Part shown: one piece after another, positions 19,965 to 42,729 of the stretch | Layout of the letters: each line of letters opens with the position of its first letter | Position numbering within the stretch: position 1 is the stretch's first letter | DNA from: a virus | Reading direction: 5' to 3' (one strand) | Length of the DNA: 64,000 nt | Virus record (IMG/VR): IMGVR_UViG_3300025276_004419 | Coordinates: 1-64,000 of that record | Notes under the pieces: model-generated | The model's input: only the letters and a program-made list of their open reading frames with translations | Database searches by the model: none | Told to the model about the DNA's origin: nothing | Translations under genes and position numbers: made by a program

Positions 19965-19972
19965 ATAAATTC

Positions 19973-22573: not shown

Positions 22574-22645
22574 TAGTAAGTGTAATACTTACATTTAAGT
22601 ATAATACGTATAACAGTAATAACAACAATAAAATAACGAAAACAA

Positions 22646-24508: not shown

Positions 24509-24536
24509 ATATAATATAACTTAATTTAAATAAATT

Positions 24537-24568
24537 TGCCCCTCCTCACGGAGGGGCATTTTTTTTTT
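24537..24568 (+). terminator. intrinsic terminator after fibre 3
   Basis: TGCCCCTCC-TCAC-GGAGGGGCA plus T10. Confidence 0.9.
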
Positions 24569-24580
24569 CCTCTATCTAAC

Positions 24581-24589
24581 ATATGTATA
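24581..24589 (+). promoter_or_regulatory. putative late promoter
   Basis: ATATGTATA after terminator. Confidence 0.6.
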
Positions 24590-24601
24590 CCCGATATTAA
24601 C

Positions 24602-24621
24602 CTGTTGGACAATGAAAACAG
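24602..24621 (+). promoter_or_regulatory. leader hairpin CTGTT-GGACAATGAA-AACAG
   Basis: Near-copy of 19973-19994. Confidence 0.55.
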
Positions 24622-24630
24622 AACTACGCA

Positions 24631-26442
24631 ATGGCAAACGAATTTAAAATAAAGAATGGCCTGATTATTTCAGGCACTCTTCCCACAGCTCCTTCCGAAA
24701 ATACTGTATTAGTAATAGATTCAGACGGAGTAGTAAAAACAAAAGAAGCAGCAGCATCCTCAGGATCTTCTGGTACGTCAGGTAGTTCAGGTACATCCGG
24801 ATCAAGTGGTTCATCAGGTACATCAGGTATAAACGGTACAAGTGGATCAAGTGGTTCATCAGGTTCATCAGGCACTTCAGGTACTTCAGGTTTATCTGGA
24901 GTAAATGGTGCAGATGGTACTAATGGTACTTCAGGTACAACAGGTACAGGTGGTACTTCAGGTTCTTCAGGTTCATCAGGAACTTCTGGTTCATCAGGAA
25001 CTTCTGGTTCATCAGGTACTTCAGGTTCATCAGGAACTTCAGGAAACGCTGGTACATCAGGCTCAAGCGGTACTTCAGGTAGCTCAGGTACATCAGGTTC
25101 TTCAGGTTCATCTGGTACAAGTGGTACTTCAGGATCATCAGGCACTTCAGGATCATCAGGTACTTCAGGTTCATCAGGTACTTCAGGATCATCAGGTTCA
25201 AGTGGTACTTCAGGATCATCAGGCACTTCAGGATCATCAGGCACTTCAGGATCATCAGGTTCATCTGGTACAAGTGGCACATCAGGTACTGATGGTGTCG
25301 GTGGTTCATCAGGTAGCTCAGGAACATCTGGAACCAGCGGTTCATCAGGAACATCAGGGAGCTCAGGTACCTCAGGTGTAGATGGTAATAATGGTACTTC
25401 AGGATCAAGCGGTAGTTCAGGTACATCAGGAAGCTCAGGCACATCAGGAAGTTCAGGCACATCAGGAAGCTCAGGTACCTCAGGTTCTTCAGGTAGTTCA
25501 GGAACATCAGGCACATCAGGTAGCTCAGGATCTTCAGGTACTAGTGGTACATCAGGTTCATCAGGTACATCGGGTTCAAGCGGTACTTCAGGTTCAGCTA
25601 CTATTGCTAATTTAGGTAATAATAGAATAACTACATCAACAGGTGTGCAAGGTGCATTAAATGCAGAAGCTAATTTGTTATTTGATGGTAGTACATTAAC
25701 CGTAACAGGTGGTTTAACTGTAACAGGCAATACTACTTTAGGTAATGCTGGTACAGACGAAATTACACTAACAGGAAAAGTAGTTACTGATATTTTAACA
25801 GATGCCGCAGGAAATACTATAGGTGATGCTACTAATCCTTGGGAAATTATTGCTAATACAGTAAAAGCTAATTTAACTACAGGTGTTGATAACTCTGTAG
25901 TAATCAAAGATGCAGATGGTTTCCTAAAAACAGATGAGATTGATTCTCGTGTTTGGGGTTCAAGTTTAGTAGATGCTACAACAGGTGCTGCTACTAGAAT
26001 AGCAACATTTACAGATGCTAATTCAATTGAAGGAGATGCAAATGTTACCTGGGATGGTAATGAATTCCTTGTTCAAGGTGCATTAACCGCAAATGAGAAA
26101 AACTTTGATATACCACATCCATCTAAAGAAGGATGGAGACTTCGTCACTCTGTTATGGAGGGACCTGAAAGAGGTGTGTATGTTAGAGGAAAGATAAAAG
26201 ACAATAAAACTATTACACTTCCAGATTACTGGAAAGATTTAGTATACGAAGATAGTATATCAGTTCAATTAACAGCTATAGGCAAATCACGTGCTCATCA
26301 TGTGGTTAACGTAAATACCTCTACCATCACAATAGGTTGTACGTTTGGTTCTATTAACGCATATTACCACGTATATGCTGAAAGAAAAGCAGATACTCCG
26401 GTATTAGTTGAATACGAAGTAACAGAAAACATAACTAAGTAA
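24631..26442 (+). CDS. Ser/Thr-rich Gly-X-Y fibre protein 4 with phage fibre C-terminal domain
   Basis: GSS/GTS repeats; C-terminal KNFDIPHP...LRHS.MEGPE.GVYVRG...LPDYW...VYAERK domain typical of phage fibre C-termini (possible assembly chaperone). Confidence 0.8.
   Translation: MANEFKIKNGLIISGTLPTAPSENTVLVIDSDGVVKTKEAAASSGSSGTSGSSGTSGSSGSSGTSGINGTSGSSGSSGSSGTSGTSGLSGVNGADGTNGTSGTTGTGGTSGSSGSSGTSGSSGTSGSSGTSGSSGTSGNAGTSGSSGTSGSSGTSGSSGSSGTSGTSGSSGTSGSSGTSGSSGTSGSSGSSGTSGSSGTSGSSGTSGSSGSSGTSGTSGTDGVGGSSGSSGTSGTSGSSGTSGSSGTSGVDGNNGTSGSSGSSGTSGSSGTSGSSGTSGSSGTSGSSGSSGTSGTSGSSGSSGTSGTSGSSGTSGSSGTSGSATIANLGNNRITTSTGVQGALNAEANLLFDGSTLTVTGGLTVTGNTTLGNAGTDEITLTGKVVTDILTDAAGNTIGDATNPWEIIANTVKANLTTGVDNSVVIKDADGFLKTDEIDSRVWGSSLVDATTGAATRIATFTDANSIEGDANVTWDGNEFLVQGALTANEKNFDIPHPSKEGWRLRHSVMEGPERGVYVRGKIKDNKTITLPDYWKDLVYEDSISVQLTAIGKSRAHHVVNVNTSTITIGCTFGSINAYYHVYAERKADTPVLVEYEVTENITK
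24763..25599 (+). repeat. coding GSS/GTS repeats
   Basis: Seen in sequence. Confidence 0.9.
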
Positions 26443-26445
26443 ACC

Positions 26446-29400
26446 ATGGCTAAAAACGTTCAAATAGTCCCACCATCAGGTAGTTTAGAATTTACAGATA
26501 GCGCTGCTCCAAACAGTGTTAAAATGGAAATTAACGCTTCTGGAGAAATGATAACCTCAGCAGGGGGGAACACTCTGATGACTATGAGCTCAGGTGAGAT
26601 AGATGTTGATAATAATACAAAACTCCTTATTCCAAAAGGTGATGAAGGCTCAGCTCCAACAGAGGCAGGCGCCTTATTTTTTGATGAAGGGGGTAATGAA
26701 TTAAGAATAGGTGATGGTAGTGGTACTGTTACTGGTGGTGGTGAAAAAGGTGCCAAAGGTAGTACAGGAGCAATTGGTCCAATAGGTCCAATTGGTATAT
26801 CCGTCATTGGTCCCATTGGAGCAACAGGTGCACAAGGTCCTATAGGAAATATAGGTAATATTGGTGTACAAGGTCCTATTGGTCCAATTGGTACATCACT
26901 TATAGGTGCTATTGGTCCTAAAGGTAGTATAGGCCCAATTGGTAACATTGGAATACAAGGCCCTATTGGTCCTACAGGTGCCGGTGGTACAGGAATTATT
27001 GGTCCTATCGGTCCTAAAGGTAGTATAGGTAATATTGGTCCTATAGGTAATATTGGAACTACTGGACCTATTGGTCCTATTGGTAATTCACCTATTGGTC
27101 CTATTGGAAACACAGGAGCACAAGGTCCTATTGGTAATATTGGAATACAAGGTCCTATTGGTCCAATTGGTTTAATTGGTACATCAGTCATAGGTCCAAT
27201 CGGAAATACAGGAGCTCAAGGCCCACGAGGTTTAATAGGCCCATTAGGTCCTAAAGGTAGCATAGGTCCAATTGGTACATCTGTTATTGGCCCAATTGGA
27301 GCAACAGGAGCACAAGGTCCACGAGGTTTAATAGGCCCATTAGGTCCTAAAGGTTCTATTGGTCCAATTGGTGTATCAGTCATAGGTCCTATTGGGGCAA
27401 CAGGAGCACAAGGTCCTATTGGTCTTATAGGTGCTATTGGTCCCAAAGGTACTATTGGCCCAATAGGTACATCAGTCATAGGCCCAATCGGTCCTAAAGG
27501 TACTATAGGTAATATTGGAAATATTGGAAATATAGGTCCACAAGGCCCTATTGGTCCCATAGGAAATTCACCTATTGGTCCTATTGGAAATACTGGAGCA
27601 CAAGGTCCTAGAGGTTTAATTGGAATACAAGGTCCAACAGGACCAATCGGTCCTATTGGTACTTCAGTCATTGGTCCTATAGGGGCAACAGGAGCACAAG
27701 GTCCTAGAGGTTTAATTGGAATACAAGGTCCAACAGGTCCAATTGGTCCAATTGGTACGTCTGTTATTGGCCCTATAGGTAATACAGGAGCACAAGGTCC
27801 TAGAGGTTTGATTGGTATACAAGGTCCTACGGGACCAATTGGTCCAATCGGTACATCGGTTATTGGTCCTATAGGAATCACAGGAGCACAAGGCCCTAGA
27901 GGTTTGATTGGTATACAAGGTCCTACTGGACCAATTGGTCCAATCGGTACATCGGTTATAGGCCCAATAGGTCCTAAAGGTACTATTGGTAATATAGGAA
28001 ATATAGGTCCACAAGGTCCAATCGGCCCTATTGGAACATCAGTCATAGGTCCAATAGGTCCAACAGGAGCACAAGGACCACGAGGTCCAATCGGTATACA
28101 AGGTCCAATCGGTCCTATTGGAACATCAGTCATAGGTCCAATAGGTCCAACAGGAATACAAGGCCCTAGAGGTCCAATCGGTATACAAGGTCCTACTGGA
28201 CCAATTGGTCCTATTGGTACATCAGTTATAGGCCCAATAGGTCCAACAGGAATACAAGGTCCTAGAGGCCCAATCGGTATACAAGGTCCAATCGGTCCTA
28301 TTGGAACATCGGTTATAGGCCCAATCGGGAATACAGGAGCACAAGGACCACGAGGTCCAATTGGTATACAAGGTCCAATAGGTCCTATAGGTCCAATTGG
28401 TACATCAGTCATAGGTCCAATCGGTCCAACAGGAATACAAGGCCCTAGAGGTTTAATAGGAATACAAGGTCCAATCGGTCCAATCGGTCCTATCGGAACA
28501 TCTGTTATAGGCCCGCAAGGTCCAATTGGAAATATTGGTATACAAGGTCCTAGAGGTTTAATTGGTCCAATCGGTCCTAAAGGTACTACAGGAAGTTCAC
28601 CTATTGGTCCTATTGGTCCACGAGGTCCTATTGGTATACAAGGCCCAATTGGTCCTAAAGGTACTACGGGTGCCATTGGTCCTATTGGTAACTCACCTAT
28701 TGGTCCTATTGGTCCACGAGGTCCTATTGGTATACAAGGCCCCATTGGTCCTAAAGGTTCTACCGGCGCTATTGGTCCTATTGGTAACTCACCTATTGGT
28801 CCTATTGGTCCACAAGGTCCTATTGGTCCACAAGGTCCAATCGGTCCTAAAGGTTCTACCGGCGCCATTGGTAATATTGGTAACTCTCCAATTGGCCCAC
28901 AAGGTCCTAGAGGTCCTATTGGTATACAAGGCCCAATTGGTCCTAAAGGTTCTACCGGCGCCATTGGTCCTATTGGTAACTCTCCAATTGGCCCACAAGG
29001 TCCTAGAGGTCCTATTGGTATACAAGGCCCAATTGGTCCTAAAGGTTCTACCGGCGCTATTGGTCCTATTGGTAACTCACCTATTGGTCCCCAAGGTCCT
29101 ATAGGCCCTACAGGAGCACAAGGTCCTAGAGGTTCAATTGGTCCAATCGGTCCTAAAGGTAGTATAGGTATTTCACCTATTGGTCCTATTGGTCCACAAG
29201 GTCCTATTGGTCCAGGTGGAGCTATTGGTGTACAAGGTCCTATTGGTCCACAAGGTCCTATTGGTCCAACGGGTGCTCAAGGTCCTATTGGTCCAGGTTC
29301 AACTGCTATTGGTCCCATAGGTCCAACAGGAGATATAGGTGGAATAGGTCCAATTGGAGCATCTGTTATTGGTCCAATTGGTCCACAAGGTCCTATTGGT

Positions 29401-29670
29401 CCTGGAGGTGCTGAAGGTGCTCAAGGAACAAATGGTACTACAGGTCCTATTGGTCCTGGAGGTCCTTCCGGAAGTTCACCAATTGGTCCACGAGGTCCAA
29501 TCGGTCCTTTAGGTCCTATAGGATCACAAGGTAATATTGGTCCACGAGGTCCTCAGGGTCCTACAGGTGCTGATGGTAACCCAGGAGGTATTACTACAAA
29601 CTTTACTATCACTGCTTTAAACGGAGATTTTGATTTTGTATTCTCAAATGGAACTTTACAGTCCATATAG
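26446..29670 (+). CDS. Pro/Ile-rich collagen-like fibre protein A
   Basis: About 950 aa of GPI/GPK/GPQ/GIQ triplets with recurring GTSVI/GNSPI interruptions. Confidence 0.85.
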   Translation: MAKNVQIVPPSGSLEFTDSAAPNSVKMEINASGEMITSAGGNTLMTMSSGEIDVDNNTKLLIPKGDEGSAPTEAGALFFDEGGNELRIGDGSGTVTGGGEKGAKGSTGAIGPIGPIGISVIGPIGATGAQGPIGNIGNIGVQGPIGPIGTSLIGAIGPKGSIGPIGNIGIQGPIGPTGAGGTGIIGPIGPKGSIGNIGPIGNIGTTGPIGPIGNSPIGPIGNTGAQGPIGNIGIQGPIGPIGLIGTSVIGPIGNTGAQGPRGLIGPLGPKGSIGPIGTSVIGPIGATGAQGPRGLIGPLGPKGSIGPIGVSVIGPIGATGAQGPIGLIGAIGPKGTIGPIGTSVIGPIGPKGTIGNIGNIGNIGPQGPIGPIGNSPIGPIGNTGAQGPRGLIGIQGPTGPIGPIGTSVIGPIGATGAQGPRGLIGIQGPTGPIGPIGTSVIGPIGNTGAQGPRGLIGIQGPTGPIGPIGTSVIGPIGITGAQGPRGLIGIQGPTGPIGPIGTSVIGPIGPKGTIGNIGNIGPQGPIGPIGTSVIGPIGPTGAQGPRGPIGIQGPIGPIGTSVIGPIGPTGIQGPRGPIGIQGPTGPIGPIGTSVIGPIGPTGIQGPRGPIGIQGPIGPIGTSVIGPIGNTGAQGPRGPIGIQGPIGPIGPIGTSVIGPIGPTGIQGPRGLIGIQGPIGPIGPIGTSVIGPQGPIGNIGIQGPRGLIGPIGPKGTTGSSPIGPIGPRGPIGIQGPIGPKGTTGAIGPIGNSPIGPIGPRGPIGIQGPIGPKGSTGAIGPIGNSPIGPIGPQGPIGPQGPIGPKGSTGAIGNIGNSPIGPQGPRGPIGIQGPIGPKGSTGAIGPIGNSPIGPQGPRGPIGIQGPIGPKGSTGAIGPIGNSPIGPQGPIGPTGAQGPRGSIGPIGPKGSIGISPIGPIGPQGPIGPGGAIGVQGPIGPQGPIGPTGAQGPIGPGSTAIGPIGPTGDIGGIGPIGASVIGPIGPQGPIGPGGAEGAQGTNGTTGPIGPGGPSGSSPIGPRGPIGPLGPIGSQGNIGPRGPQGPTGADGNPGGITTNFTITALNGDFDFVFSNGTLQSI
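26740..29589 (+). repeat. coding collagen repeats, including four tandem 96-bp units
   Basis: GGAGCACAAGG begins at 27595, 27691, 27787 and 27883. Confidence 0.9.
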
Positions 29671-29703
29671 AATTAAAACTTGGTATAGCAGGTAAAATAA
29701 TTT

Positions 29704-29712
29704 ATATTTATA
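29704..29712 (+). promoter_or_regulatory. putative late promoter
   Basis: ATATTTATA heading the collagen B/modification operon. Confidence 0.6.
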
Positions 29713-29730
29713 TAAAACAAATAATCATCA

Positions 29731-32700
29731 ATGGCTGACAATGTTCAAATAATCCCCTCCACTGGAGAATTAACTTTTAGTAAGGATGGTGTAGGGTATA
29801 ATTGGGAATTAGTTTATGATAACGCATTGTTAACATGGTCTGATACCCAAGCAGGTGTAATTGCTCTACAATTCTCTAGCGATTCAATGCTAATGGGGGG
29901 TTCCACAGGGTTATTTATAATACCTACCCTCCCTACAACCAGTATAGGAACATTAACTGAAGGTCAAATAGTTTTTAATACTACGACTAAAAGTTTAATA
30001 GTAGGGGGATCAAATGGTAATGTAAGTTTACAAGGTCAACCCGGTGCTACAGGTAATCAAGGTGCTATTGGTCCAATTGGTCCAAACGCACCAACAGGTC
30101 CAATTGGTCCTAAAGGTGTAACTGGTGCTATCGGTCCTATTGGTTTAATAGGCCCAGAAGGTTTAATTGGTAATAAAGGCCCAAATTCACCTGCAGGTCC
30201 TATTGGTCCTAGAGGTCCAGGTGGTGTAATTGGTCCTAATGGACCTGAGGGTTTAATAGGAAATAAAGGACAAAAAGGTAGTAATTCTCCAATAGGTGCT
30301 ATTGGCCCTAAAGGTATTATAGGTGCTATTGGGAACATAGGTAATATAGGCCCTGGTGGTTTAATAGGTGCTAAAGGTCCTATTGGTGTTATAGGCGCTA
30401 TAGGTCCTAAGGGTATAACAGGTGTTATTGGTAATATAGGTCCTGAAGGTTTAATAGGTAATAGAGGTCCAATCGGTCCTGATTCTCCAATAGGTCCAAT
30501 TGGTCCTAAAGGAGTAACAGGTGTAATTGGACCACAAGGTCCTATTGGTCCAAGAGGTGTAATAGGTGCTATTGGTCCTAATTCCCCAATAGGTCCAATT
30601 GGTCCTAAAGGTATAACTGGTATTATTGGACCACAAGGTCCTATAGGACCAAGAGGTGTAATAGGTGCTATTGGTCCTAATTCTCCAATAGGTCCAATTG
30701 GTCCTAAGGGTGTAACTGGTGCTATTGGAAATAATGGTCCTATTGGTCCTAGAGGTCCAGGTGGTGCTATTGGTCCTAACTCACCAATAGGTCCAATCGG
30801 TCCTAGAGGTCCAGGAGGATCTATTGGCCCCATTGGTTTAATAGGACCAGAAGGTTTAATAGGTGCTAAAGGTCCTATTGGTGTTATAGGTGCTATAGGT
30901 CCAAAAGGTATAACAGGTGCAATTGGACCACAAGGTCCTGAAGGTTTAATAGGTTTAATAGGTGCTAAAGGTCCTATCGCAATAACAGGCCCAATTGGCC
31001 CTAAAGGCGTTACTGGCGCTATAGGTCCACAAGGTCCTGAAGGTTTAATAGGTTTAATAGGTGCTAAAGGCCCTATCGCTATAACGGGTCCTATTGGTCC
31101 TAAAGGTGTAACAGGTGCAATTGGACCACAAGGTCCTGAAGGTTTAATTGGTAACCAAGGTGCTAAAGGTCCTAATGCTGTAACAGGCCCAATAGGTCCT
31201 AAAGGTATAACAGGTCCTAGAGGACCTCAAGGTCCTGAAGGTTTAATTGGTAACCAAGGTGCTAAAGGCCCCATAGCTATAACAGGCCCAATCGGTCCTA
31301 GAGGTCCGGGTGGTAGTATAGGTCCTATTGGTCCCGAAGGTTTAATAGGTGCCAAAGGTCCTAACGCTATAGTTGGTCCTATAGGTCCTAAAGGTGTAAC
31401 AGGTGCAATAGGTCCACAAGGTCCTGAAGGTTTAATAGGTAACAGAGGACCCGTAGCTATAACAGGTCCAATTGGTCCTAAAGGAGTAGAAGGTTCTAGA
31501 GGGCCTCAAGGTCCCGAAGGTTTAATTGGTAACCAAGGTGCTAAGGGTCCTATCGCTATAACAGGTCCAATTGGTCCTAAAGGTGTAACAGGTGCAATAG
31601 GTCCACAAGGTCCTGAAGGTTTAATAGGTAATAGAGGTCCAGTAGCTGTAATAGGTCCAATTGGTCCTAAAGGTATAACAGGTCCTAGAGGTCCACAGGG
31701 TCCCGAAGGTTTAATTGGTAACCAAGGTGCTAAGGGTCCTATCGCTATAACAGGTCCAATTGGTCCTAAAGGTGTAACAGGTGCTATTGGGCCTCAAGGT
31801 CCTGAAGGTTTAATTGGTAACCAAGGTGCTAAAGGTCCTAATGCTGTAACAGGTCCTAGGGGTCCTATAGGTAATATAGGCCCAGAAGGTTTAATAGGCC
31901 CCCAAGGTCCTATAGGTCCTCGTGGTATAACAGGTGCTACAGGTGCTATAGGTGCTATTGGTCCTATTGGTCCACAGGGACCAGAAGGTTTAATAGGTAA
32001 CAGAGGTCCAAATGGTAATCAAGGTCCTATAGGCCCAACAGCTCCTATTGGTGCTATAGGTCCACTAGGTCCACAAGGTCCTGAAGGTCTAATAGGTGCT
32101 AGAGGTCCAAATGGTAATCAAGGTCCTATAGGCCCAACAGCTCCTATTGGTGCTATAGGTCCTAGAGGTTCTAGAGGTCCCGAAGGTTTAATAGGTCCTA
32201 TAGGTCCTGGTGGTAATCAAGGTCCTATAGGTCCCATTGGTGCTATAGGTGCTAGAGGTCCTATTGGACCACAAGGTCCTGAGGGTTTAATAGGTCCTAT
32301 AGGTCCTGGTGGTAATCAAGGTCCTATAGGTCCCATTGGTGCTATAGGTGCTAGAGGTCCTATTGGACCACAAGGTCCTGAGGGTTTAATAGGTCCTAGA
32401 GGTCCTGGTGGTAACCAAGGTCCTATAGGACCTATTGGTGCTACAGGTCCTGAAGGTTTAATAGGTCCTAAAGGAAATACTGGAGCTCAAGGTCCACAAG
32501 GTCCTGAAGGTCCTAGAGGTCCTATCGGAGCAACAGCCCCTATTGGTGCTATAGGTCCAGAGGGTTTAATAGGTCCTAAAGGTGCTAGAGGCCCAGAGGG
32601 TCTCATAGGTCCTAGAGGTCCAATTGGTCCTAAAGGTAATACAGGTGCAATAGGTCCAAAAGGTCCTGAAGGTCCTATTGGACCAAAAGGTTCTAGAGGT

Positions 32701-33855
32701 CCAATAGGTAACAAAGGCCCTATTGGTGCCACAGGCCCTATTGGTAGAGAAGGTTTAATAGGTAATAAAGGTGCTAAAGGTCAAAAAGGTCAACCTCGTG
32801 ATTTTGATGGTCCTATAGGTCCTATTGGTCTTAAAGGACCCACTGGTGCTATTGGTGCTATTGGACCACAAGGTCCTATTGGTCCTGCCCGAAATAGCAG
32901 TGCTGCTCCAATAGGTCCTGAAGGTCCTAGAGGTCCTATAGGTGCTACTGGAGCTAATGCTACACCAGCAGGAATTGCTGGTAACCCGGTTATAGATACT
33001 ATTGAAGATGGTGCTGGTTATACCTGGAATCTTGAATTTGTTGATGGATATCTTACAAAAGCGGATCCAGCTTATGAAAACTATCGTTATTATAGTAATG
33101 ATGGTGTTAATGATTATGTAACTGGTGCTTGGAGTGGCCAAACAGGATTAGTTCAAAATGATTGGAGTTTTAGCTTCTGGGTTAGAAATAATGAAGTTGA
33201 TAAAAATAATATGACATTTTGGGATTTTTGTGTTGACCCTGTAGGTTCAGCAAATAATAATAATAGAATATTTTTAAATTATGCTGCTAATTTTAATAGA
33301 TTAATATTTAGAGTTAGAACTAATTCTACAAACTTTGATTGTAATTATGCTTTAAATAGTGGAGGAAGTAATGGTACTATAACAGGTGTAACAAATACTA
33401 CTTCAGGATGGAGAGCAGCCCAAAGGGGTAATACAAATGCTGCAGGTTTTACTCACTTAGCAGGTACTTATGATGCTTCTGAAACAGTAGCTAGCAATGC
33501 ACTTAAATTATATTGGAATGGTTCCTCACTAACTACAGTTACTGTAAATTCAGGTACCCGTACTAATGGGACTTATGATAATTTGACATTATGTACCAAC
33601 ACATCAGGTGTTACAGGTACAGCAAATGCACATATAGACATGGATGAGTTTACTTGGTTTGATAAATCCTTAAGTTCAACAGAAGTAGGAGCCTTATACG
33701 CTAGTGGAGTAATTAAAGCAGCTAAAGAAAGTGGAAATACGGGTGTGGTAAATGCTATAGAGGAAGCAGCTAGTTTTGACCAAAATACCTCAGCTACTGT
33801 TAAAAATGCTAAATGGTCTGCTTCTATTATAGGAGGTACTACTCCAGCATACTAA
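29731..33855 (+). CDS. Pro/Ile-rich collagen-like fibre protein B with C-terminal LamG/ConA-like domain
   Basis: About 985 aa of Gly-X-Y, then WSFSFWV...HLAGTYD...LYWNG...DEFTWFDKSLS..EV..LY (LamG-like). Confidence 0.85.
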   Translation: MADNVQIIPSTGELTFSKDGVGYNWELVYDNALLTWSDTQAGVIALQFSSDSMLMGGSTGLFIIPTLPTTSIGTLTEGQIVFNTTTKSLIVGGSNGNVSLQGQPGATGNQGAIGPIGPNAPTGPIGPKGVTGAIGPIGLIGPEGLIGNKGPNSPAGPIGPRGPGGVIGPNGPEGLIGNKGQKGSNSPIGAIGPKGIIGAIGNIGNIGPGGLIGAKGPIGVIGAIGPKGITGVIGNIGPEGLIGNRGPIGPDSPIGPIGPKGVTGVIGPQGPIGPRGVIGAIGPNSPIGPIGPKGITGIIGPQGPIGPRGVIGAIGPNSPIGPIGPKGVTGAIGNNGPIGPRGPGGAIGPNSPIGPIGPRGPGGSIGPIGLIGPEGLIGAKGPIGVIGAIGPKGITGAIGPQGPEGLIGLIGAKGPIAITGPIGPKGVTGAIGPQGPEGLIGLIGAKGPIAITGPIGPKGVTGAIGPQGPEGLIGNQGAKGPNAVTGPIGPKGITGPRGPQGPEGLIGNQGAKGPIAITGPIGPRGPGGSIGPIGPEGLIGAKGPNAIVGPIGPKGVTGAIGPQGPEGLIGNRGPVAITGPIGPKGVEGSRGPQGPEGLIGNQGAKGPIAITGPIGPKGVTGAIGPQGPEGLIGNRGPVAVIGPIGPKGITGPRGPQGPEGLIGNQGAKGPIAITGPIGPKGVTGAIGPQGPEGLIGNQGAKGPNAVTGPRGPIGNIGPEGLIGPQGPIGPRGITGATGAIGAIGPIGPQGPEGLIGNRGPNGNQGPIGPTAPIGAIGPLGPQGPEGLIGARGPNGNQGPIGPTAPIGAIGPRGSRGPEGLIGPIGPGGNQGPIGPIGAIGARGPIGPQGPEGLIGPIGPGGNQGPIGPIGAIGARGPIGPQGPEGLIGPRGPGGNQGPIGPIGATGPEGLIGPKGNTGAQGPQGPEGPRGPIGATAPIGAIGPEGLIGPKGARGPEGLIGPRGPIGPKGNTGAIGPKGPEGPIGPKGSRGPIGNKGPIGATGPIGREGLIGNKGAKGQKGQPRDFDGPIGPIGLKGPTGAIGAIGPQGPIGPARNSSAAPIGPEGPRGPIGATGANATPAGIAGNPVIDTIEDGAGYTWNLEFVDGYLTKADPAYENYRYYSNDGVNDYVTGAWSGQTGLVQNDWSFSFWVRNNEVDKNNMTFWDFCVDPVGSANNNNRIFLNYAANFNRLIFRVRTNSTNFDCNYALNSGGSNGTITGVTNTTSGWRAAQRGNTNAAGFTHLAGTYDASETVASNALKLYWNGSSLTTVTVNSGTRTNGTYDNLTLCTNTSGVTGTANAHIDMDEFTWFDKSLSSTEVGALYASGVIKAAKESGNTGVVNAIEEAASFDQNTSATVKNAKWSASIIGGTTPAY
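30034..32988 (+). repeat. coding collagen repeats
   Basis: GPI/GPK/GPE/GLI triplets. Confidence 0.9.
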
Positions 33856-33865
33856 AATTTAAACT

Positions 33866-34108
33866 ATGAATACTAAATATTATTTAATAGAAGCCTCAGA
33901 ATATCCAAATTATGAAAATTCTTTGGATCAAGGAGTTGCTTGGAAATTAGATAGGAGTCAATGCCTCATAGAAGTAGCAGTTGATTTTACAGTTTACCCT
34001 TATGTAAATAGTTGGGATAATTCAGGAGATTTTAAACTCTGGAGAAATCAAGATGCAAATTGGCCTGATTGGGAAACACAGGAACAACACGATGGTGAGT
34101 ATAATTAA
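33866..34108 (+). CDS. hypothetical protein
   Basis: 80-aa ORF between the fibre and modification genes. Confidence 0.5.
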   Translation: MNTKYYLIEASEYPNYENSLDQGVAWKLDRSQCLIEVAVDFTVYPYVNSWDNSGDFKLWRNQDANWPDWETQEQHDGEYN

Positions 34109-34124
34109 AGATTAAAAATTTGTT

Positions 34125-36455
34125 ATGAAATTAGTTATATATGCGGGGTATTATTCCCCACCCTACTCACCTGAAACTATAGATGAAACTGGTTTAGGAG
34201 GTACAGAACAATGTATTATAAATTTAGCTAAAACCCTTAAATCCCAAAATCCAATTTGGGATATTTGGGTCGTTGGTGGAGTGGTTTATGGAGATTACGA
34301 TGGTATAATGTATAGACCTACACAAGACTTTAAAAATGAAGTAAAATCTGTAGATACTATTATTGGGGTTTCGTACATTCATTACATTAAAGAATTTGAG
34401 GGTATCGATTATACCGACTCAATACTTTGGGTGCATAATACCGAATATTATACGTGGTGGAATGGCCAAGATATTGCCAACCATCGTGAACTTTTATTAG
34501 ATTCTAAATTAAAATCTATAATTTGCTTAACAGAATGGCATAAAAACATATTTATAGAACAATTCCCAGAAACCAAAGATAAAATTCAAGTTATAGGTAA
34601 TGGAGTAGATACTTCTAAATTCCAGATAGGAGATAAAAACCCAAATCAATACATTTATACTTCACACGCTGAACGAGGTTTAAGTCAAATACTAACAGAA
34701 TGGGATAGTATTTTATTCAAAAATCCCCTTGCGGAATTAAAAATATCTACTCCTCAATATGGTTTAGAATATTTTAATCTTTATTACAGAGATTTAGTAG
34801 ATAACTTGGATAACGTAGAATTCCTTGGTACATTACCGCAACATGAGCTATATAAACTAATGGCCCAAAGTACTTATTGGTATTATCCTTCATCATATCA
34901 GGAAACCTTTTGTATTACGGCTTTAGAAATGTTAGGTCATGGGGTTCAACCTATTACTTGGGAATGGGGAGGATTAAAGGAAACATTAAACAATTTTAAT
35001 ACCCTAAATAAGGACGAATTCCTAGATTGGGAAGAAGTAAATCAATACCTAAATCAATGTAGTTGGAAATCCAGAGTAAATAACCACTGGGTCCCATTAC
35101 TAACAAATACAAGTATGAAATTAGAAACATTTTATGTTTTAGCTCTAAATGAGACAGCCGAAATTAGAGAAAAATGCGAAAACTTACACTTACCATCCAA
35201 AACCCCTTATTGGATTAAACCTGGGTTCGATGCTCGTAAAATGGAGCAAGAAGATTGGGATAAATTTGGTGTAGATAAACACCCACGTTGGAATATTGAA
35301 GGTAGTAATCCTTGGTGGAAACGTGATGTAATGGAAGGTGAATTAGGTTGTGGCTTATCTCATGTAGATGCTTGGGTAGATTCATATCGTAGAGGATTAG
35401 AAGTAACACTAATTTTAGAAGAGGATTTTCACGAAGAAATGCCTGTAGATTGGAAACAAATTGATAAATTGTTTAAAAAAGGTTATGACCTTATTTATTT
35501 AGGACGTAATGCTTTAGAGGCAGCACTAGAAAAACCAATTAAAGATGTTAAAGGTTGGGTTGAACCCGATTACACATATAATTCTCACGCATATATCTTA
35601 TCTAAAAGGGGTGTACAAATTTTAGTAGAAGAGTATATGGAGCAATACAAGAAAGAAATGTTTGCTTTTGATGAATTTCTTACTCTTACTTTTGGTATGA
35701 CCCATCGTCAGGATATCCTTCAAGAATATGAGGGTAAAACTCGATTAAAAGCAGCAGCCCCTATTCGAGACCACTATATACAAAAAGATAGCCCAGGATC
35801 AACATTTTATATTAAACCAACCCAACCATCCTTTGGGGACTTGCTGGGAAAGCCACCCGGAGTTAGAGATAGCTCCAATTGGGAAATATGGTGTCAAAAA
35901 TATATTAACCCATTTTTACTTAAGGGTCAAAGTAGGTTAATGATAGATGAAATAGCACCTAATGTCATAGAATTCCCTTTATTTACAGAAGAATTTTGTA
36001 AAGAAGTTATAAGTTTAGCAGAAGATAAAGAATGGGTTACGGATAGACATGAGTTTTACCCTACAACAGACCAAACTATGGAAAGTTTAGGAATGCAAGA
36101 TATTTATCAAAGAGTATTAGAACAATTTGTATATCCTATATGGATACAATTTTGGGAACTTACAGGTGAACCTTGGAAAACGTTAACGAGCGAAAATTTT
36201 ATAGCTAAGTATAATACCAAAAATCAAGGTAGTTTAGACTTGCATCACGACAGCTCTGCCATTACATTAAATGTAAGATTAAATAATGAATTTAAAGGTG
36301 GGGGTACATTCCTACCAAAATACAAAACTACAGTCCAACCACGTAAAACTGGGTATGCTATGGCACACCCGGGAAATATAACTCATTTACACGGGGGTAG
36401 ACCAGTAGAAACAGGAACACGTTATATATTAGTATCATTTACAGCAAACAATTAA
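34125..36455 (+). CDS. three-domain fusion: GT4-like glycosyltransferase + GT25 (COLGALT-like) + PLOD-like 2OG-Fe(II) lysyl hydroxylase
   Basis: aa1-325 GT-B (GLGGTE, YTS..ERGL, YPSSYQETFCITALE). From aa331: GELGCGLSH, LILEED, DLIYLGR, EPDYTYNSHAYILS. From aa586: FPLFTE..C, PTTD, HHDSS.ITLN, GGGT, HPG..THLHGG.P...GTRYILVSF. Confidence 0.85.
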   Translation: MKLVIYAGYYSPPYSPETIDETGLGGTEQCIINLAKTLKSQNPIWDIWVVGGVVYGDYDGIMYRPTQDFKNEVKSVDTIIGVSYIHYIKEFEGIDYTDSILWVHNTEYYTWWNGQDIANHRELLLDSKLKSIICLTEWHKNIFIEQFPETKDKIQVIGNGVDTSKFQIGDKNPNQYIYTSHAERGLSQILTEWDSILFKNPLAELKISTPQYGLEYFNLYYRDLVDNLDNVEFLGTLPQHELYKLMAQSTYWYYPSSYQETFCITALEMLGHGVQPITWEWGGLKETLNNFNTLNKDEFLDWEEVNQYLNQCSWKSRVNNHWVPLLTNTSMKLETFYVLALNETAEIREKCENLHLPSKTPYWIKPGFDARKMEQEDWDKFGVDKHPRWNIEGSNPWWKRDVMEGELGCGLSHVDAWVDSYRRGLEVTLILEEDFHEEMPVDWKQIDKLFKKGYDLIYLGRNALEAALEKPIKDVKGWVEPDYTYNSHAYILSKRGVQILVEEYMEQYKKEMFAFDEFLTLTFGMTHRQDILQEYEGKTRLKAAAPIRDHYIQKDSPGSTFYIKPTQPSFGDLLGKPPGVRDSSNWEIWCQKYINPFLLKGQSRLMIDEIAPNVIEFPLFTEEFCKEVISLAEDKEWVTDRHEFYPTTDQTMESLGMQDIYQRVLEQFVYPIWIQFWELTGEPWKTLTSENFIAKYNTKNQGSLDLHHDSSAITLNVRLNNEFKGGGTFLPKYKTTVQPRKTGYAMAHPGNITHLHGGRPVETGTRYILVSFTANN

Positions 36456-36459
36456 AAAC

Positions 36460-37074
36460 ATGAACACACTTTATTCATTTCCACTAGACTTTGACAAATA
36501 TGTTAATCAAAGCAATTATTATTGGTTTGAGGAAGGTTTTACAGCCGAAGAACTAAAAACCCTCGAACAACAAGTACAAGAAATTCCATCACAAGCTGGT
36601 GTAACAGAAACCGGTAATCAAGCTGATGGTGAGGGTTTAGAATCACGTAATTCTACGATTAAATGGGTTCCATTTAGTGAAGAGACTAAGTGGATCTACG
36701 ACAAAATTGGTATGTTAGCCAAAACTGCTAATGATGAGATGTTCCATTTTGATATCCACAATATGCCAGAAAATATCCAGTACACTGAGTATTATGGTAC
36801 TAATAAAGGTCATTATGATTGGCATATGGATATTGGTACTGAAGGACATATGAAATTTCGTAAAATATCAGTTACAGTACAACTTTCAGATTCTACCGAA
36901 TATGAAGGTGGAGATCTACAGATCTGGCCTGGTGGTCAAGCACCTTATACTGCTCCACGTGGTAAAGGTAATGTTGTAATTTTCCCATCTTATCTGATGC
37001 ATCGTGTTACACCTGTAACCGAGGGTACTAGAAAATCATTTGTATTATGGTTAGGTGGTGGTCATTTTAAATAA
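36460..37074 (+). CDS. 2OG-Fe(II) oxygenase (P4Hc/PKHD-like)
   Basis: HYDWHMD, RKISVTVQLSD..EYEGGDL, IFPSYLMHRVTPVT.GTRKS. Confidence 0.88.
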   Translation: MNTLYSFPLDFDKYVNQSNYYWFEEGFTAEELKTLEQQVQEIPSQAGVTETGNQADGEGLESRNSTIKWVPFSEETKWIYDKIGMLAKTANDEMFHFDIHNMPENIQYTEYYGTNKGHYDWHMDIGTEGHMKFRKISVTVQLSDSTEYEGGDLQIWPGGQAPYTAPRGKGNVVIFPSYLMHRVTPVTEGTRKSFVLWLGGGHFK

Positions 37075-37823
37075 TGAAAATAGCATTATTAATTAGTGGT
37101 CAACCACGTAGACATAGAGAAGGCTATCAAGAATTAAAAAAATGGTTTCTAGATAAGTATGATATAGATGTTTATTTACACGCTTGGAAAGATACCGAAT
37201 TCAAGAAATATGATTTTTTTAATGAAGGCAAGGTGCAAAAAACCTATGAAGTTAATGATGATTTATATCAAAATTTACTTGATTGGTATCAACCTAAAGG
37301 CTTTTTATTTGAACCATCAATCCAATTCGATGCTTCGGGTTTAAAAGGTCCTAATAACCAACGACTAAACTCCCAAATGGGTATGTGGATGTCTACATAC
37401 AGGTCATTTCAGTTATGTGAGGAATCAGGTATAAAATACGATTTAGTATTTAAAACTCGCTATGATTTACTATTTACACACTATGCTGCGAATAACTGTG
37501 ATTTATTAACAAATATTACACAATTAGATCCTGATAGATTACATTTTTGGGAATACGCCCCACATTGGAATATGGATTGGCAAATCAACGACCAGTTAGC
37601 AATAGGTAAACCAGAATTAGTAAAACAATATTGTAGCGTGTTCCCTGAAATGCTTTTTAATATATTTCACAACCCAGAATATCGAGATAATAATGATGAT
37701 ATTTTTATAAATGAAACTTTAGTACTACAACACATTAAAAATTTAAATATCCCATTATCACCTATGTATCATGGATTTGATGGTTCTCGAGGTATAGATT
37801 GTGGGTGTCATATAATGAGATAA
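37074..37823 (+). CDS. putative glycosyltransferase/glyco-cluster protein
   Basis: MKIALLISGQPR, YDLVFKTRYD, NDQLAIG; pattern typical of viral glycosylation clusters. Confidence 0.5.
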   Translation: MKIALLISGQPRRHREGYQELKKWFLDKYDIDVYLHAWKDTEFKKYDFFNEGKVQKTYEVNDDLYQNLLDWYQPKGFLFEPSIQFDASGLKGPNNQRLNSQMGMWMSTYRSFQLCEESGIKYDLVFKTRYDLLFTHYAANNCDLLTNITQLDPDRLHFWEYAPHWNMDWQINDQLAIGKPELVKQYCSVFPEMLFNIFHNPEYRDNNDDIFINETLVLQHIKNLNIPLSPMYHGFDGSRGIDCGCHIMR

Positions 37824-37826
37824 TAA

Positions 37827-40139
37827 ATGAAAGAACCAAAAATTTTTGGACATGGTCCTTATATAGGAACAACAGGTTATAACAACCATACACGTGATTT
37901 TTTTAGGGGTCTATCTAACCACCACCCATTAAAATTTCGTAACTTTACTGTAGGTAGTAGTTGGGAAGGTATGAATAAAGAACCACATAATGGGGAATCT
38001 TACCTCCTTGATATAGATAAAAATATACTCCACCAACAAACATACTACACCTCAGAGGGTGATATGGTTGATGGTGAAATATACCCTAATAATGGAGAAA
38101 ATTTTAACCATAATGTAAATTTAATTTTGATGGAAACTAACCATCATTATTTTTTTCACAATTATAAAGGACCTAAAATAGCTTATAATGTTTGGGAATC
38201 TACGAAACAACCGGAAGCATTTTTTAATAAATTATTAGAATTTGATCAAATCTGGGTCCCATCACAATGGCAGGCAGATTGTACTATTGAACAAGGTGCT
38301 GATCCTGATAAAGTAAAAGTAGTCCCTGAGGGGGTAGATACAGAAACATTTTTTCCTGAAGATCCTCAAACTACATTAGACTATGTAGATGGTCGTTTTA
38401 AATTTATTCACTTTGGAAGGTGGGATTATAGAAAATCTACAAAAGAAATTATTAAAACTTTCTTAAAAGAATTTAAACCCGAAGAACCCGTAGATTTAAT
38501 TTTATCTATTGATAATATGTGGGGCAAAGATATGGATAGTTTTGAAACAACTGAAGAAAGACTAAAACATTATGGTTTTACGGACGAACGTTTAAAAATT
38601 AAACATTTTCCATCAAGAGAAGATTATATTACGTATTTAAAAAATGGTCATGTATTTTTGTCTTGTGCTCGTAGTGAAGGTTGGAATTTACCTTTAATTG
38701 AAGCCATGGCTTGTGGTACCCCATCTATATACTCAGCGGATTCAGCTCAAATGCAATTTGCATCAGGTAAGGGTCTACCAGTAAAAATATTAGGCGAAAA
38801 ACCTGCAACATCTAATGATTATGGTCGCTATACTATGAGTGATCTTCCAGGAAATTACCCAGAACCCGATTTCGAAGATTTAGCTATCGTAATGCGTGAT
38901 GCATTTGAAAATTATACTGACTATAAAAAACGTGCTATAGAAGAAGCAAAGTTGATTCATCGTGATTTTAATTGGAAAAATGTAGCTCAAATTGGTAGTA
39001 ATACTATTAAAGAATTTATGGATAATTATGTAGCCCCTGCTATTAAACCTAATACTATTAATGTTTCGTATTTAGAGGGTCCTAAAGTAGAAATTTTAGG
39101 GGACAACCCTGAAGAATATACAATAGAATTTATTAACGGGGATACTAATGAAGTAGTATTTAGTGATAAAATTACTAATGGAATGTGGACCACGTGTAAC
39201 AAAAAATATTATATTCCTTGGATTATAAAAGTTAATGGAGAGATAGTAAATAAATTTAGTTTAAAAGATAAAAAGGTTTTAATAGGTTTAGATTCAAATT
39301 CAATAGGAGACACTATAGCATGGACTCCATATGCTGTTGAATTTGCTAAAAAGCATAATTGTCAAGTCCTTTTATCTACCCACCATAACTCATGGTTTGA
39401 GGGCGTTGATGCTTATAAAGATATTAAATTTATTACCCCTGGGGATTTTGAACCTTGCCACGCTATGTATAGAATTGGATGGTTTAAAGATGATGAGGGT
39501 TTTTGGAAAGATTTTAATAAACACCCTAACCAAGTTAATTTATACCCATTACAACAAACTGCTGCTGATATTTTAGGTTTAGAATTTAAAGAATTAAATC
39601 ATGGGTTAGTATTTAATAAAAATGCAACCCCAATTAAGTCTAAATACGTAGTTATAGGACCAGAATCAACAGCAGGGTGTAAAGAGTGGCCTAGACAAAA
39701 TTGGAACGTTTTAGCTAAATTACTAAATCAACAAGGATATACAGTAATAACTTTAACTAAAAACCCACTTAAAATCCCAGGTACGATTAATGTTTACAAT
39801 AAACCTTTTGATGTTTTAGCTAATTATTTACTTAATGCTGATTTATTTATAGGTTTAAGCTCCGGATTATCTTGGTTTAATTGGGGGTTAGGTAAAAAAA
39901 CAGTAATGATGAATGGTTTTACCTCTAAAGAACATGAATTCCAAACTAAAGTTACTCGTATACGTGAGGAAAGTGTTTGTAATTCTTGTTGGGTTAATCC
40001 AAATTTTAAATTTGATGCTGGGGATTGGGATTGGTGTCCTATATGGAAAGGAACAGATAAACAGCATACGTGTATGAAATCCGTCTCACCAACTCAAGTT
40101 TTTAAACAAGTTAAACAAATTTTAAATAGTAAAAAATAA
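37827..40139 (+). CDS. GT4-like glycosyltransferase fused to TibC/AAH-type (BAHT) protein O-heptosyltransferase-like domain
   Basis: N-half GT4 (GRWDYRK, RSEGWNLPLIEAMACGTP). C-half GDTIAWTPYA..F..KH.C, FIGLSSGLSW, CNSCW...FD..DWDWCP...TDKQHTC, matching the recalled TibC iron-finger Cys pattern. Confidence 0.85.
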   Translation: MKEPKIFGHGPYIGTTGYNNHTRDFFRGLSNHHPLKFRNFTVGSSWEGMNKEPHNGESYLLDIDKNILHQQTYYTSEGDMVDGEIYPNNGENFNHNVNLILMETNHHYFFHNYKGPKIAYNVWESTKQPEAFFNKLLEFDQIWVPSQWQADCTIEQGADPDKVKVVPEGVDTETFFPEDPQTTLDYVDGRFKFIHFGRWDYRKSTKEIIKTFLKEFKPEEPVDLILSIDNMWGKDMDSFETTEERLKHYGFTDERLKIKHFPSREDYITYLKNGHVFLSCARSEGWNLPLIEAMACGTPSIYSADSAQMQFASGKGLPVKILGEKPATSNDYGRYTMSDLPGNYPEPDFEDLAIVMRDAFENYTDYKKRAIEEAKLIHRDFNWKNVAQIGSNTIKEFMDNYVAPAIKPNTINVSYLEGPKVEILGDNPEEYTIEFINGDTNEVVFSDKITNGMWTTCNKKYYIPWIIKVNGEIVNKFSLKDKKVLIGLDSNSIGDTIAWTPYAVEFAKKHNCQVLLSTHHNSWFEGVDAYKDIKFITPGDFEPCHAMYRIGWFKDDEGFWKDFNKHPNQVNLYPLQQTAADILGLEFKELNHGLVFNKNATPIKSKYVVIGPESTAGCKEWPRQNWNVLAKLLNQQGYTVITLTKNPLKIPGTINVYNKPFDVLANYLLNADLFIGLSSGLSWFNWGLGKKTVMMNGFTSKEHEFQTKVTRIREESVCNSCWVNPNFKFDAGDWDWCPIWKGTDKQHTCMKSVSPTQVFKQVKQILNSKK

Positions 40140-40143: not shown

Positions 40144-40152
40144 ATATTTATA
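40144..40152 (+). promoter_or_regulatory. putative late promoter
   Basis: ATATTTATA. Confidence 0.5.
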
Positions 40153-40155: not shown

Positions 40156-40407
40156 ATGGAAAAAGTTTCGTTAAGCAAAGAAGAAATTCAAATTATTAAG
40201 GACATCCAACAAACAGAACAAGAAATTGTATCCCAATTAGGTCAAATCGAATATCAAATTTTATCTCTTAATTCACAAAAAGAAGATTTAAAAAATGCTA
40301 TTAAAGATATTAACAATAAAGGGAATAAATTAGGAGAAGATCTTCAACAAAAATATGGAGACGGATCTATTAACATAGAAACAGGAGAATTCACGAAATC
40401 GAATTAA
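40156..40407 (+). CDS. small coiled-coil hypothetical protein
   Basis: 83 aa, heptad pattern, KYGDGSINIETGEF end. Confidence 0.55.
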   Translation: MEKVSLSKEEIQIIKDIQQTEQEIVSQLGQIEYQILSLNSQKEDLKNAIKDINNKGNKLGEDLQQKYGDGSINIETGEFTKSN

Positions 40408-42240: not shown

Positions 42241-42729
42241 ATGGCAGTATTAGATCCAAATGAAATTTTCTTTACAGCGTTTGAGCCCAAACAAGCAAAC
42301 AGGTTCATCATGTATATTGATGGTTTCCCCGCTTACACCGTAAAAGGCGTAGGTGCTGTAACTTTAAGTCAAGGTACAGTGGCTTTAAACCACATTAACG
42401 TTCAACGTTTTGTTAAAGGTAAATCAACCTGGGGACCAATTACATTCACGTTATTTGATCCAATTACTCCTTCAGGCGCTCAATCCGTAATGGAGTGGGT
42501 ACGTTTACACCACGAATCAGTTACTGGTAGAGATGGTTATTCAGATTTCTACAAGAAAGATTTAACATTTAACGTATTAGGTCCAGTAGGTGACATAGTA
42601 TCAGAATGGATAATCAAAGGTGCTATGATTACTGAAGCAGGTTTTGGTGAGTATGGTTGGGATACTGAAAATCAAGCTATTAACTTGACAATGACAGTTC
42701 AACCAGATTACTGTATCTTGAACTTCTAG
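42241..42729 (+). CDS. tail tube protein (T4 gp19-like)
   Basis: Follows sheath; FEPKQANRF, WGPITFTL.D, EW.IKGA motifs. Confidence 0.88.
   Translation: MAVLDPNEIFFTAFEPKQANRFIMYIDGFPAYTVKGVGAVTLSQGTVALNHINVQRFVKGKSTWGPITFTLFDPITPSGAQSVMEWVRLHHESVTGRDGYSDFYKKDLTFNVLGPVGDIVSEWIIKGAMITEAGFGEYGWDTENQAINLTMTVQPDYCILNF

Follow-up and report, generated by a model that had tools for sequence, protein, structure and literature searches.

Collagen-like fibres and a candidate hydroxylation and glycosylation pathway encoded in the structural module of an uncultured marine myovirus

In animals, the enzymes LH3 (PLOD3) and COLGALT1 (GLT25D1) convert collagen lysine (Lys) to hydroxylysine (Hyl), galactosyl-Hyl and finally glucosyl-galactosyl-Hyl, a route that belongs to textbook chemistry. 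Among viruses, the only case of collagen Lys hydroxylation and Hyl glycosylation found in the literature is mimivirus, which encodes collagen-like proteins together with L230 (lysyl hydroxylase, LH, and glucosyltransferase), R699 (GGT), R655 (GT25-like) and L593 (prolyl 4-hydroxylase, P4H). Here we analyse the first 64 kb, hereafter the window, of the 130-kb IMG/VR record IMGVR_UViG_3300025276_004419, the structural module of an uncultured marine tailed phage of the myovirus type. Six fibre genes in this window are directly followed by relatives of the animal collagen hydroxylating and glycosylating enzymes and by a protein-serine sugar transferase, so the phage probably decorates its own fibres. 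The enzyme families concerned, as well as the hydroxylation and glycosylation of collagen by virus-encoded enzymes (mimivirus), are already established. What is new is the setting in a tailed phage and the bacterial cytoplasm, the union of GT4, GT25 and LH domains in a single chain, the operon shared with the substrate genes, and the pairing of a TibC/Aah-type protein O-heptosyltransferase (BAHT) with Ser-rich collagen-like fibres.

The phage LH domain belongs to the same family as that of mimivirus L230 and has the same Tyr/His/Asp/His/Arg site. Unlike mimivirus, the phage is a tailed bacteriophage of the bacterial cytoplasm, its hydroxylase shows a GT4-GT25-LH instead of a GT-A-LH architecture, its enzymes lie in one putative operon with the substrate genes, and it adds a BAHT-type Ser glycosyltransferase and a Ser-rich class of fibre. 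The likeness to the human enzymes comprises the LH domain and the catalytic GT2 domain of COLGALT1, where the GELGC...SH stretch is shared and the position of the acidic Mn2+ motif (EDD) reads EED in the phage and EDD in several relatives. In contrast to the human system, the phage lacks the GT-A and accessory domains of PLOD and the GT1 domain of COLGALT, has a GT4 domain of GT-B fold instead, and carries the three domains in one polypeptide, with no endoplasmic reticulum.

The BAHT domain matches the TibC/Aah enzymes (PDB 4rap) at equivalog level, with the catalytic Asp110 and the four iron-finger Cys conserved, but it is encoded by a phage, stands behind a GT4 domain, and its likely acceptor is a Gly-Ser/Thr-Ser repeat, not a beta-helix passenger. 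In bacteria, the collagen-like exosporium filament BclA of Bacillus anthracis carries O-glycans on the Thr of GXT triplets, and a P4H can hydroxylate prolines at both the X and Y positions (PMC8968730). The system proposed here resembles it in combining collagen-like filaments that would carry O-glycans with a candidate prolyl hydroxylase; the enzyme families differ, and BclA is associated with no lysyl hydroxylase, GT25 or BAHT. A 2022 review considered prokaryotic collagens to be essentially unhydroxylated, and hydroxylation to be specific to eukaryotes save for one Bacillus P4H (PMC8968730), and no description of a phage system for collagen hydroxylation or glycosylation was found in the full-text literature.

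Collagen-like fibres and domain composition of the enzymes

The six collagen-like genes (fibres A to F, 17314-33855; Table 1) follow the neck genes and precede the enzymes, four of them at 17314-26442, and belong to two chemical classes. Fibres A-D consist of 93 to 153 G-[S/T/A]-S triplets with no Lys or Pro in the runs, as in fibre A, whose 153 Gly-X-Y triplets are mainly G-[STA]-S. In fibres E and F, Pro occupies the X and Lys the Y position: E comprises 297 triplets in 30 runs (Pro 162 times at X and once at Y; Lys 16 times at Y and never at X) and F 301 triplets (Pro 161 at X, 2 at Y; Lys 38 at Y, 0 at X). Together they present 54 candidate X-Lys-Gly sites in triplet runs, with Pro at X 323 times and at Y three times. 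A previous reading of the DNA from its letters and open reading frames (ORFs), the sequence-only reading, had reported two collagen genes of about 1000 aa; both are indeed collagen-like, but they are the two large members (1074 and 1374 aa) of a set of six. The C-terminal 298 aa of fibre F form a domain grouped with ConA/LamG-like lectin domains in the ESM Atlas, which is a lead only. No N-terminal anchor domain common to the six fibres was found, the only resemblances being those of E to F and of C to D. Minus-strand ORFs of up to 582 aa run over the collagen genes (26460-29025 and 30057-33141) and are not genes but shadow frames of the kind that Gly-X-Y repeats usually produce.

The gene at 34125-36455 encodes a 776-aa protein of three domains in which all catalytic residues appear to be present. 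In the first of these, a GT4 domain of retaining type, the E260-x7-E268 motif is invariant in the homologue alignment. The only match of the second, GT25 domain to a solved structure is COLGALT1, of which residues ~336-490 (catalytic GT2) align. The COLGALT1 catalytic domain has an unusual EDD Mn2+-binding motif (PMC12003778), and at the aligned position the window protein has E432-E433-D434, of which E432 and D434 are invariant. No counterpart of the N-terminal non-catalytic GT1 domain of COLGALT was aligned.

The LH domain, a 2-oxoglutarate (2OG)-Fe(II) oxygenase, matches human LH3/PLOD3 (PDB 6fxk; E = 9e-26) and mimivirus L230 (PDB 6ax6; E = 2e-22) through residues 589-773, that is, over the whole LH double-stranded beta-helix. 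The site of L230 is formed by Tyr814, His825, Asp827, His877 and Arg887 (PMC5802723). Their counterparts Y696, H707, D709, H756 and R766, the Fe(II) triad and the 2OG-binding Tyr and Arg, occur with identical spacing and are invariant across 13 diverse homologues, down to 40% identity. The N-terminal GT-A and accessory domains that PLOD enzymes possess were looked for and not found, LH3 residues 1-500 being without a match; since GT4 and GT25 domains occupy the N-terminal part, the protein is a member of the LH-domain family and not a PLOD orthologue. That family is large, with 2080 representatives at E <=1e-10 and 220 representative clusters at E <=1e-30, and the LH domain is C-terminal throughout, in proteins of ~210, 450, 560 and 800 aa besides longer PLOD-like ones. 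As the sequence-only reading had anticipated, the domains of the fusion match collagen enzymes (LH3, L230 and, at ~1e-14, COLGALT1) and not lipopolysaccharide (LPS) or DNA-modifying enzymes.

The same distinction holds for the second fusion (37827-40139), the C-terminal domain of which appears to be of the protein-modifying and not the LPS type: it scores 234.3 bits with the TIGR04414 equivalog (NCBIfam; curated cut-off 200) versus only 28 bits with LPS heptosyltransferase I. It aligns with TibC (4rap) near full length (E = 4e-34). The key residues of TibC are the catalytic Asp110 and the iron-finger Cys C339/342/358/370 (PMC4358343), with which D495 and C718, C721, C737 and C749 align, respectively. 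No autotransporter gene was seen near the BAHT gene, its neighbours being collagen-like fibre and tail genes. The GT4 domains of the two fusions were considered as recent duplicates of each other; this was rejected, as BLASTP gives only a 31-residue patch. In the remainder of the record, 58 kb past the window, a lone cytidylyltransferase-like gene (122432-122800 of the record; PF01467) stands between DUF932 and T5orf172 genes; it reaches 95 bits with rfaE domain II, below the cut-off, and no sugar-nucleotide pathway is recognisable around it.

Two further enzymes are encoded between the fusions. The 204-aa oxygenase has an invariant HxD...H/RxS site (H122, D124, H181, R191 and S193 in the homologue alignment), and its AlphaFold2 (AF2) model (pLDDT 84) retrieves PiuC, a Pseudomonas P4H and PHD2 as top Foldseek matches, with template-modelling (TM) scores of 0.6-0.73. 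For the model of the 249-aa GT-A enzyme, Foldseek gave 188 PDB matches at E <=0.001, of which the top-listed are all GT-A enzymes, among them glycogenin, B3GalT5, BoGT6a and the GT domain of LH3 (E ~1e-6, TM only 0.4-0.5). This gene is single-copy in the window, and related phages (loci L002-L030 and L060) have 2-4 tandem divergent paralogues of 34-86% identity, which suggests a rapid diversification of glycans.

Gene order and linkage of enzymes with collagen genes

The sequence-only reading had placed collagen F and the enzymes in one late operon between neck and tail sheath, and this is supported by the layout. All of its ORFs were found as described on the plus strand (26446-29670, 29731-33855, 33866-34108, 34125-36455, 36460-37074, 37074-37823 and 37827-40139), and the gaps following collagen F, given as at most 16 bp, measure 10, 16, 4, -1 and 3 nt. 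The collagen and enzyme block sits between the head-tail adaptor and the sheath and tube genes. The motif ATATTTATA occurs in 16 exact copies in the window versus 4 expected, 15 of them on the plus strand and most of them ~20 nt 5' of the start codons of structural genes (positions include 1887, 4405, 6303, 13627, 14218, 17289, 19956, 29704, 40144, 40426, 42212, 45827 and 61383), and a variant, ATATGTATA, is found at the equivalent position before 12881, 24631 and 42823. From its placement, ATATTTATA is probably the late-promoter element of this phage. The putative operon is bounded by the copy ahead of collagen F and by the next intergenic one at 40144-40152, 3' of the block, where another follows at 40426. 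An earlier statement that neither a new motif nor a terminator intervenes between 29713 and 40143 holds for the intergenic gaps, which are free of ATATTTATA, and for convincing plus-strand terminators, none of which was seen; however, an exact copy of the motif lies inside the fusion gene (34548-34556), and one weak terminator-like site lies within a gene at 38128. Given the lack of intergenic ATATTTATA copies and of convincing plus-strand terminators in the block, the stretch from collagen F to 40139 looks like one transcription unit.

Homologues of the triple fusion are numerous, with more than 300 among metagenome proteins and 164 stretches in IMG/VR. ORFs were called in 79 loci and classified by BLASTP against the window proteins and by their Gly-X-Y content. 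In 43 loci the DNA upstream of the fusion spans 3 kb or more, and each of the 43 (31/31 when duplicates are removed) has a collagen-like ORF there on the same strand; this ORF is within 1.6 kb of the fusion in 27 of the 31 non-duplicate loci. One further locus (L003), from a giant-virus metagenome-assembled genome (MAG), was set aside as a candidate, as it has a GT4-only match and no LH.

Several gene orders were distinguished among these loci. In arrangement A, collagen genes are followed by the fusion, the oxygenase, 2-4 copies of the GT-A gene, the GT4-BAHT fusion and the sheath; in arrangement B, the order is collagen, oxygenase, fusion and sheath; and in arrangement C, collagen and oxygenase precede a GT4-LH protein that lacks GT25, the module as a whole lying 5' of the adaptor genes. 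In a further, split form, GT4 and GT25-LH are separate genes. Arrangement D was found in a complete 82-kb genome, with the order portal (phrog_6547), collagen, LamG protein, fusion and virion proteins, and no sheath nearby. The phage backbone of this lineage (L036:1-22298; contigs of 60-82 kb, with G086 rated complete) is unrelated to that of the window, and its 1789-aa collagen lacks Pro and has G-x-K in ~49% of the triplets. A P4H-like gene is absent from the lineage, and a DUF6445/phrog_1644 'minor coat protein' stands between the LamG-like protein and the triple fusion; as a candidate relative of the oxygenase, whose place it takes, this protein showed no detectable relation and no PDB match. 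Since the arrangements differ, the linkage of collagen and fusion is not merely the shared ancestry of one gene order, and the co-occurrence proposed in the sequence-only reading is borne out in 43/43 phage loci, in four gene arrangements and on two unrelated backbones.

Collagen matches are located solely beside the enzymes in three of four large records, including the D genome and a 90%-complete C genome, and those of the window's own record are all at 17.3-33.9 kb. Flavobacterium phage vB_FspM_immuto has homologous head and tail genes (sheath, tube and capsid) but neither the collagen genes nor the fusion. In a sub-lineage of type C (L074:4104-5399), a 431-aa glycosyltransferase of the GT2 family lies between the oxygenase and the GT4-LH protein; the first sugar transferase seems to have been replaced here by a non-homologous enzyme.

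The composition of the fibres also varies with the enzymes that accompany them. In the 35 loci with the small oxygenase, the adjacent collagens contain 0.37 Pro per triplet at the median, versus 0.03 in the nine loci that lack it (one of them truncated). Ser/Thr-only collagens accompany the BAHT fusion, being adjacent to it in locus L056, and no Ser-only collagen was among the matches of two BAHT-free genomes. Microcystis phage Mel-JY01, in which LH is absent, has a 1016-aa G-[T/S]-S frame without Lys beside a GT4-TibC-FkbM gene. This covariation, which involves few independent lineages, is suggestive. In the Mel-JY01 record (PP395634.1, L084:1-8430), two minus-strand hypothetical proteins are annotated at 1-2298, opposite a plus-strand frame with 202 G-[T/S]-S triplets; considering this 1016-aa frame, the annotation probably records shadow ORFs. 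The 'methyltransferase FkbM' of the same phage (4750-8430) is a GT4-TibC-type fusion with 43% identity over 99% of the window protein.

Scanning prokaryotes at one genome for each species gave 25 loci with an LH domain. Most encode stand-alone proteins of ~208 aa, 43-46% identical to the phage domain, in Thiothrix, Thiolinea, Leucothrix, Cocleimonas and other Thiotrichales (L094-L111). Granulosicoccaceae MAGs and the Chromatiales bacterium ex Bugula neritina (L112-L114) carry chromosomal GT4-LH fusions of ~560 aa, with the architecture of phage type C and no adjacent collagen-like ORF. The isolate Aquimarina sp. RZ0 encodes, on a 27-kb contig (L092:4271-6337), a 460-aa GT25-LH-like protein followed by a 215-aa stand-alone LH that is 57% identical to the phage domain; no phage structural genes were seen in the 16 kb examined, and many collagen-like ORFs are present on other contigs of this strain.

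Proposed maturation of the fibres and alternative explanations

The pathway put forward in the sequence-only reading, that of hydroxylated and glycosylated collagen fibres, gains support from domain identities, catalytic residues and synteny. On this comparative evidence, we consider it probable that a late structural operon provides a marine myovirus with collagen-like virion fibres and with enzymes that act on them in the host cytoplasm, ahead of assembly. Late in infection, nascent and still unfolded fibre chains would be modified in the cytoplasm. The LH domain would convert Y-position Lys of fibres E and F to Hyl using Fe2+, 2OG and O2, the GT25 domain would add the first hexose, as COLGALT1 does, and the fused GT4 domain may add a second sugar, taking the role of the glucosyltransferase domain of LH3 with a different fold, so that a mono- or disaccharide would result. 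The small oxygenase may hydroxylate Pro at X positions. The BAHT domain, perhaps as a TibC-like ring oligomer, would O-glycosylate hundreds of Ser (and Thr) in fibres A-D, probably with heptose, and its GT4 partner and the GT-A enzyme would extend or diversify the glycans. Trimerisation of the modified chains and their attachment between neck and tail would follow. The modifications would probably make long neck or tail fibres more stable, better hydrated, shielded from proteases or more adhesive.

A number of observations weigh against this proposal. The window protein scores 23.6 bits with PF01755 (GT25), just under the cut-off of 24; this family assignment is precomputed for most relatives of the fusion, and homologues reach 44-68 bits. 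Searches of the 130-kb record yielded neither gmhA nor an ADP-heptose pathway, and the heptose donor would therefore need to be host-derived. The 204-aa oxygenase is nearest to PiuC/PHD-type enzymes and not to collagen P4H, and animal collagen P4H acts at Y (X-Pro-Gly), whereas the Pro of fibres E and F sits at X; if it acts on these fibres, the oxygenase must consequently do so at X. The counts behind the covariation of enzymes and fibres are phylogenetically clustered, hence the independent events are few. Furthermore, chromosomal collagen-like ORFs sampled from 81 Flavobacteriaceae genomes, only one of which has LH, show the same bias as fibres E and F (Lys at Y 96 versus X 3; Pro at X 551 versus Y 37). 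This pattern, being generic in Flavobacteriaceae, was rejected as evidence of co-adaptation with LH and shows only that suitable X-Lys-Gly sites exist.

Bacterial LH genes provide a further point on that side, and with it an alternative that we regard as very improbable, in which the substrate of the LH-type domain is not collagen but another protein, of the host or the phage, or a small molecule, as may also hold for its stand-alone homologues. The family is large, and the neighbours of the stand-alone LH genes of Thiotrichales are housekeeping genes (RecQ-like, glycyl-tRNA synthetase), collagen-like ORFs being absent up to 10 kb away. On the independence of LH homologues from collagen genes, a point raised in the sequence-only reading, phages and bacteria thus differ, the two being linked in the former and separate in Thiotrichales. 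For this reason the LH domain alone is no proof of a collagen substrate, and the phage case rests on the GT25 fusion and on synteny: the phage domain is fused to a COLGALT-like GT25 and is always near collagen genes. Moreover, collagen-like genes are present elsewhere in all four LH-carrying bacterial genomes tested, versus 4 of 14 control genomes.

The main competing explanation, which we hold to be unlikely, is that the glycosyltransferases (GT-A, GT4, BAHT and perhaps the GT25 and GT4 of the triple fusion) use other proteins of the virion as acceptors, for instance capsid, sheath or tube, instead of or besides the fibres. Glycosylation of capsid and tail is known in actinobacteriophages, the GT4 domain of 37827-40139 weakly matches glycosyltransferases encoded in structural regions of over 100 Streptomyces phages, and the enzyme cluster is located within the structural module. 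However, the enzymes track collagen and not capsid or sheath, as seen in immuto, which has all three of these structural proteins but no enzymes; the fusion is again found by a collagen gene in the 82-kb lineage; and the homology to LH and COLGALT points to Hyl as the acceptor. A role in remodelling the host envelope (LPS, capsule or surface glycoproteins), for instance to block superinfection, with the adjacency to collagen being historical, could be envisaged from the Pfam descriptions, by which GT4, GT9-like and GT25 enzymes are best known from LPS and polysaccharide synthesis. It appears very improbable to us: the genes belong to a late structural operon and lack a separate promoter-like motif, by the scores given above the heptosyltransferase domain is of the TibC/Aah protein type, LPS synthesis does not involve a lysyl hydroxylase, and the translations, inspected by eye, show no evident signal peptide or membrane segment. 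That the domains are inactive evolutionary relics is scarcely credible: a single one of 11 aligned fusion homologues (P0120) has lost triad residues, whereas catalytic residues are invariant or nearly so over homologues of 33-90% identity and the family is conserved across hundreds of contigs.

If the phage does modify its own collagen-like fibres, such fibres would be glycoproteins, with sugars that might control adsorption and the stickiness of particles at sea, and the pathway would be widespread in marine phages, considering the hundreds of contigs and the 220 hydroxylase clusters. BAHT enzymes would gain a new class of substrate, the origin of LH and COLGALT enzymes would need rethinking, and compact single-chain enzymes, expressed in bacteria, could serve to produce hydroxylated and glycosylated recombinant collagen. 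A farther-reaching scenario, possible but rather doubtful at present, is that tailed phages of at least two unrelated lineages carry a complete and portable 'matrix-type' maturation pathway in the bacterial cytoplasm, yielding disaccharide-bearing Hyl, X-position hydroxyproline and densely O-heptosylated Gly-Ser-Ser triple helices, in which BAHT was recruited to collagen, and that the LH and GT25 enzymes of animals and giant viruses belong to a much older and larger family of prokaryotes and phages.

The phage and the surrounding genes

Table 1. Positions of the annotated features in the window
Feature	Position	Strand	Basis
Large terminase	2821-4401	+	PHROG
Portal	4429-6291	+	PHROG
Major head protein	11106-12794	+	PHROG
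Head-tail adaptor	14237-15400	+	PHROG
Fibre A, 862 aa, Ser/Thr type	17314-19902	+	PHROG collagen-like tail-fibre families, composition
Fibre B, 849 aa, Ser/Thr type	20024-22573	+	One run, 111 uninterrupted triplets
Fibre C, 620 aa, Ser/Thr type	22646-24508	+	123 uninterrupted triplets, Ser at Y in 118
Fibre D, 603 aa, Ser/Thr type	24631-26442	+	93 triplets, 280-aa C-terminal non-collagen domain
Fibre E, 1074 aa, Pro/Lys type	26446-29670	+	Pfam Collagen 290 bits (cut-off 27)
ATATTTATA promoter-like motif ahead of collagen F	29704-29712	+	Next intergenic copy 40144-40152
Fibre F, 1374 aa, Pro/Lys type, first gene of putative operon	29731-33855	+	Pfam Collagen 362 bits (cut-off 27)
80-aa acidic, Trp-rich ORF	33866-34108	+	Kept only in close relatives (synteny)
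GT4 domain (GT-B, retaining type), residues 1-330	34125-35114	+	PF00534 31.8 bits
GT25 (COLGALT-like) domain, residues 335-524	35127-35696	+	COLGALT1 E 1.3e-14
Lysyl hydroxylase domain (PLOD/L230-type 2OG-Fe(II) oxygenase), residues 585-776	35877-36452	+	LH3, L230 matches
2OG-Fe(II) oxygenase, prolyl-hydroxylase fold, 204 aa	36460-37074	+	PF13640 58.5 bits
GT-A-fold glycosyltransferase, 249 aa	37074-37823	+	AF2 pLDDT 90, phrog_13607, no Pfam family
GT4 domain of second fusion, residues 1-410	37827-39056	+	PF00534 34.7 bits, phrog_2170
TibC/Aah-type protein O-heptosyltransferase (BAHT), residues 411-765	39057-40121	+	TIGR04414
Tail sheath	40457-42196	+	PHROG
Tube	42241-42729	+	PHROG

The record is ~80% complete according to CheckV, and related contigs are 165-178 kb long. 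The source is a large myovirus; its earlier designation as a 'jumbo' phage does not agree with these sizes. The closest isolates are immuto (160 kb) and Mel-JY01, with sheath protein identities of 52% and 48%, respectively. No near-identical isolate was found: megablast of the enzyme block against isolate phages gave no match, and tblastn of the fusion gave single-domain matches only.

All substantial ORFs of the window are on the plus strand, and the tube gene is followed by the baseplate hub and, further downstream, by replication genes (PHROG). Family searches with the 80-aa ORF that separates fibre F from the triple fusion gave no match. At the other end of the block, an 83-aa ORF (40156-40407) with its own ATATTTATA lies directly 5' of the sheath gene; it is kept in all myovirus-type loci, including those free of BAHT, and probably belongs with the tail genes, not with the modification set.

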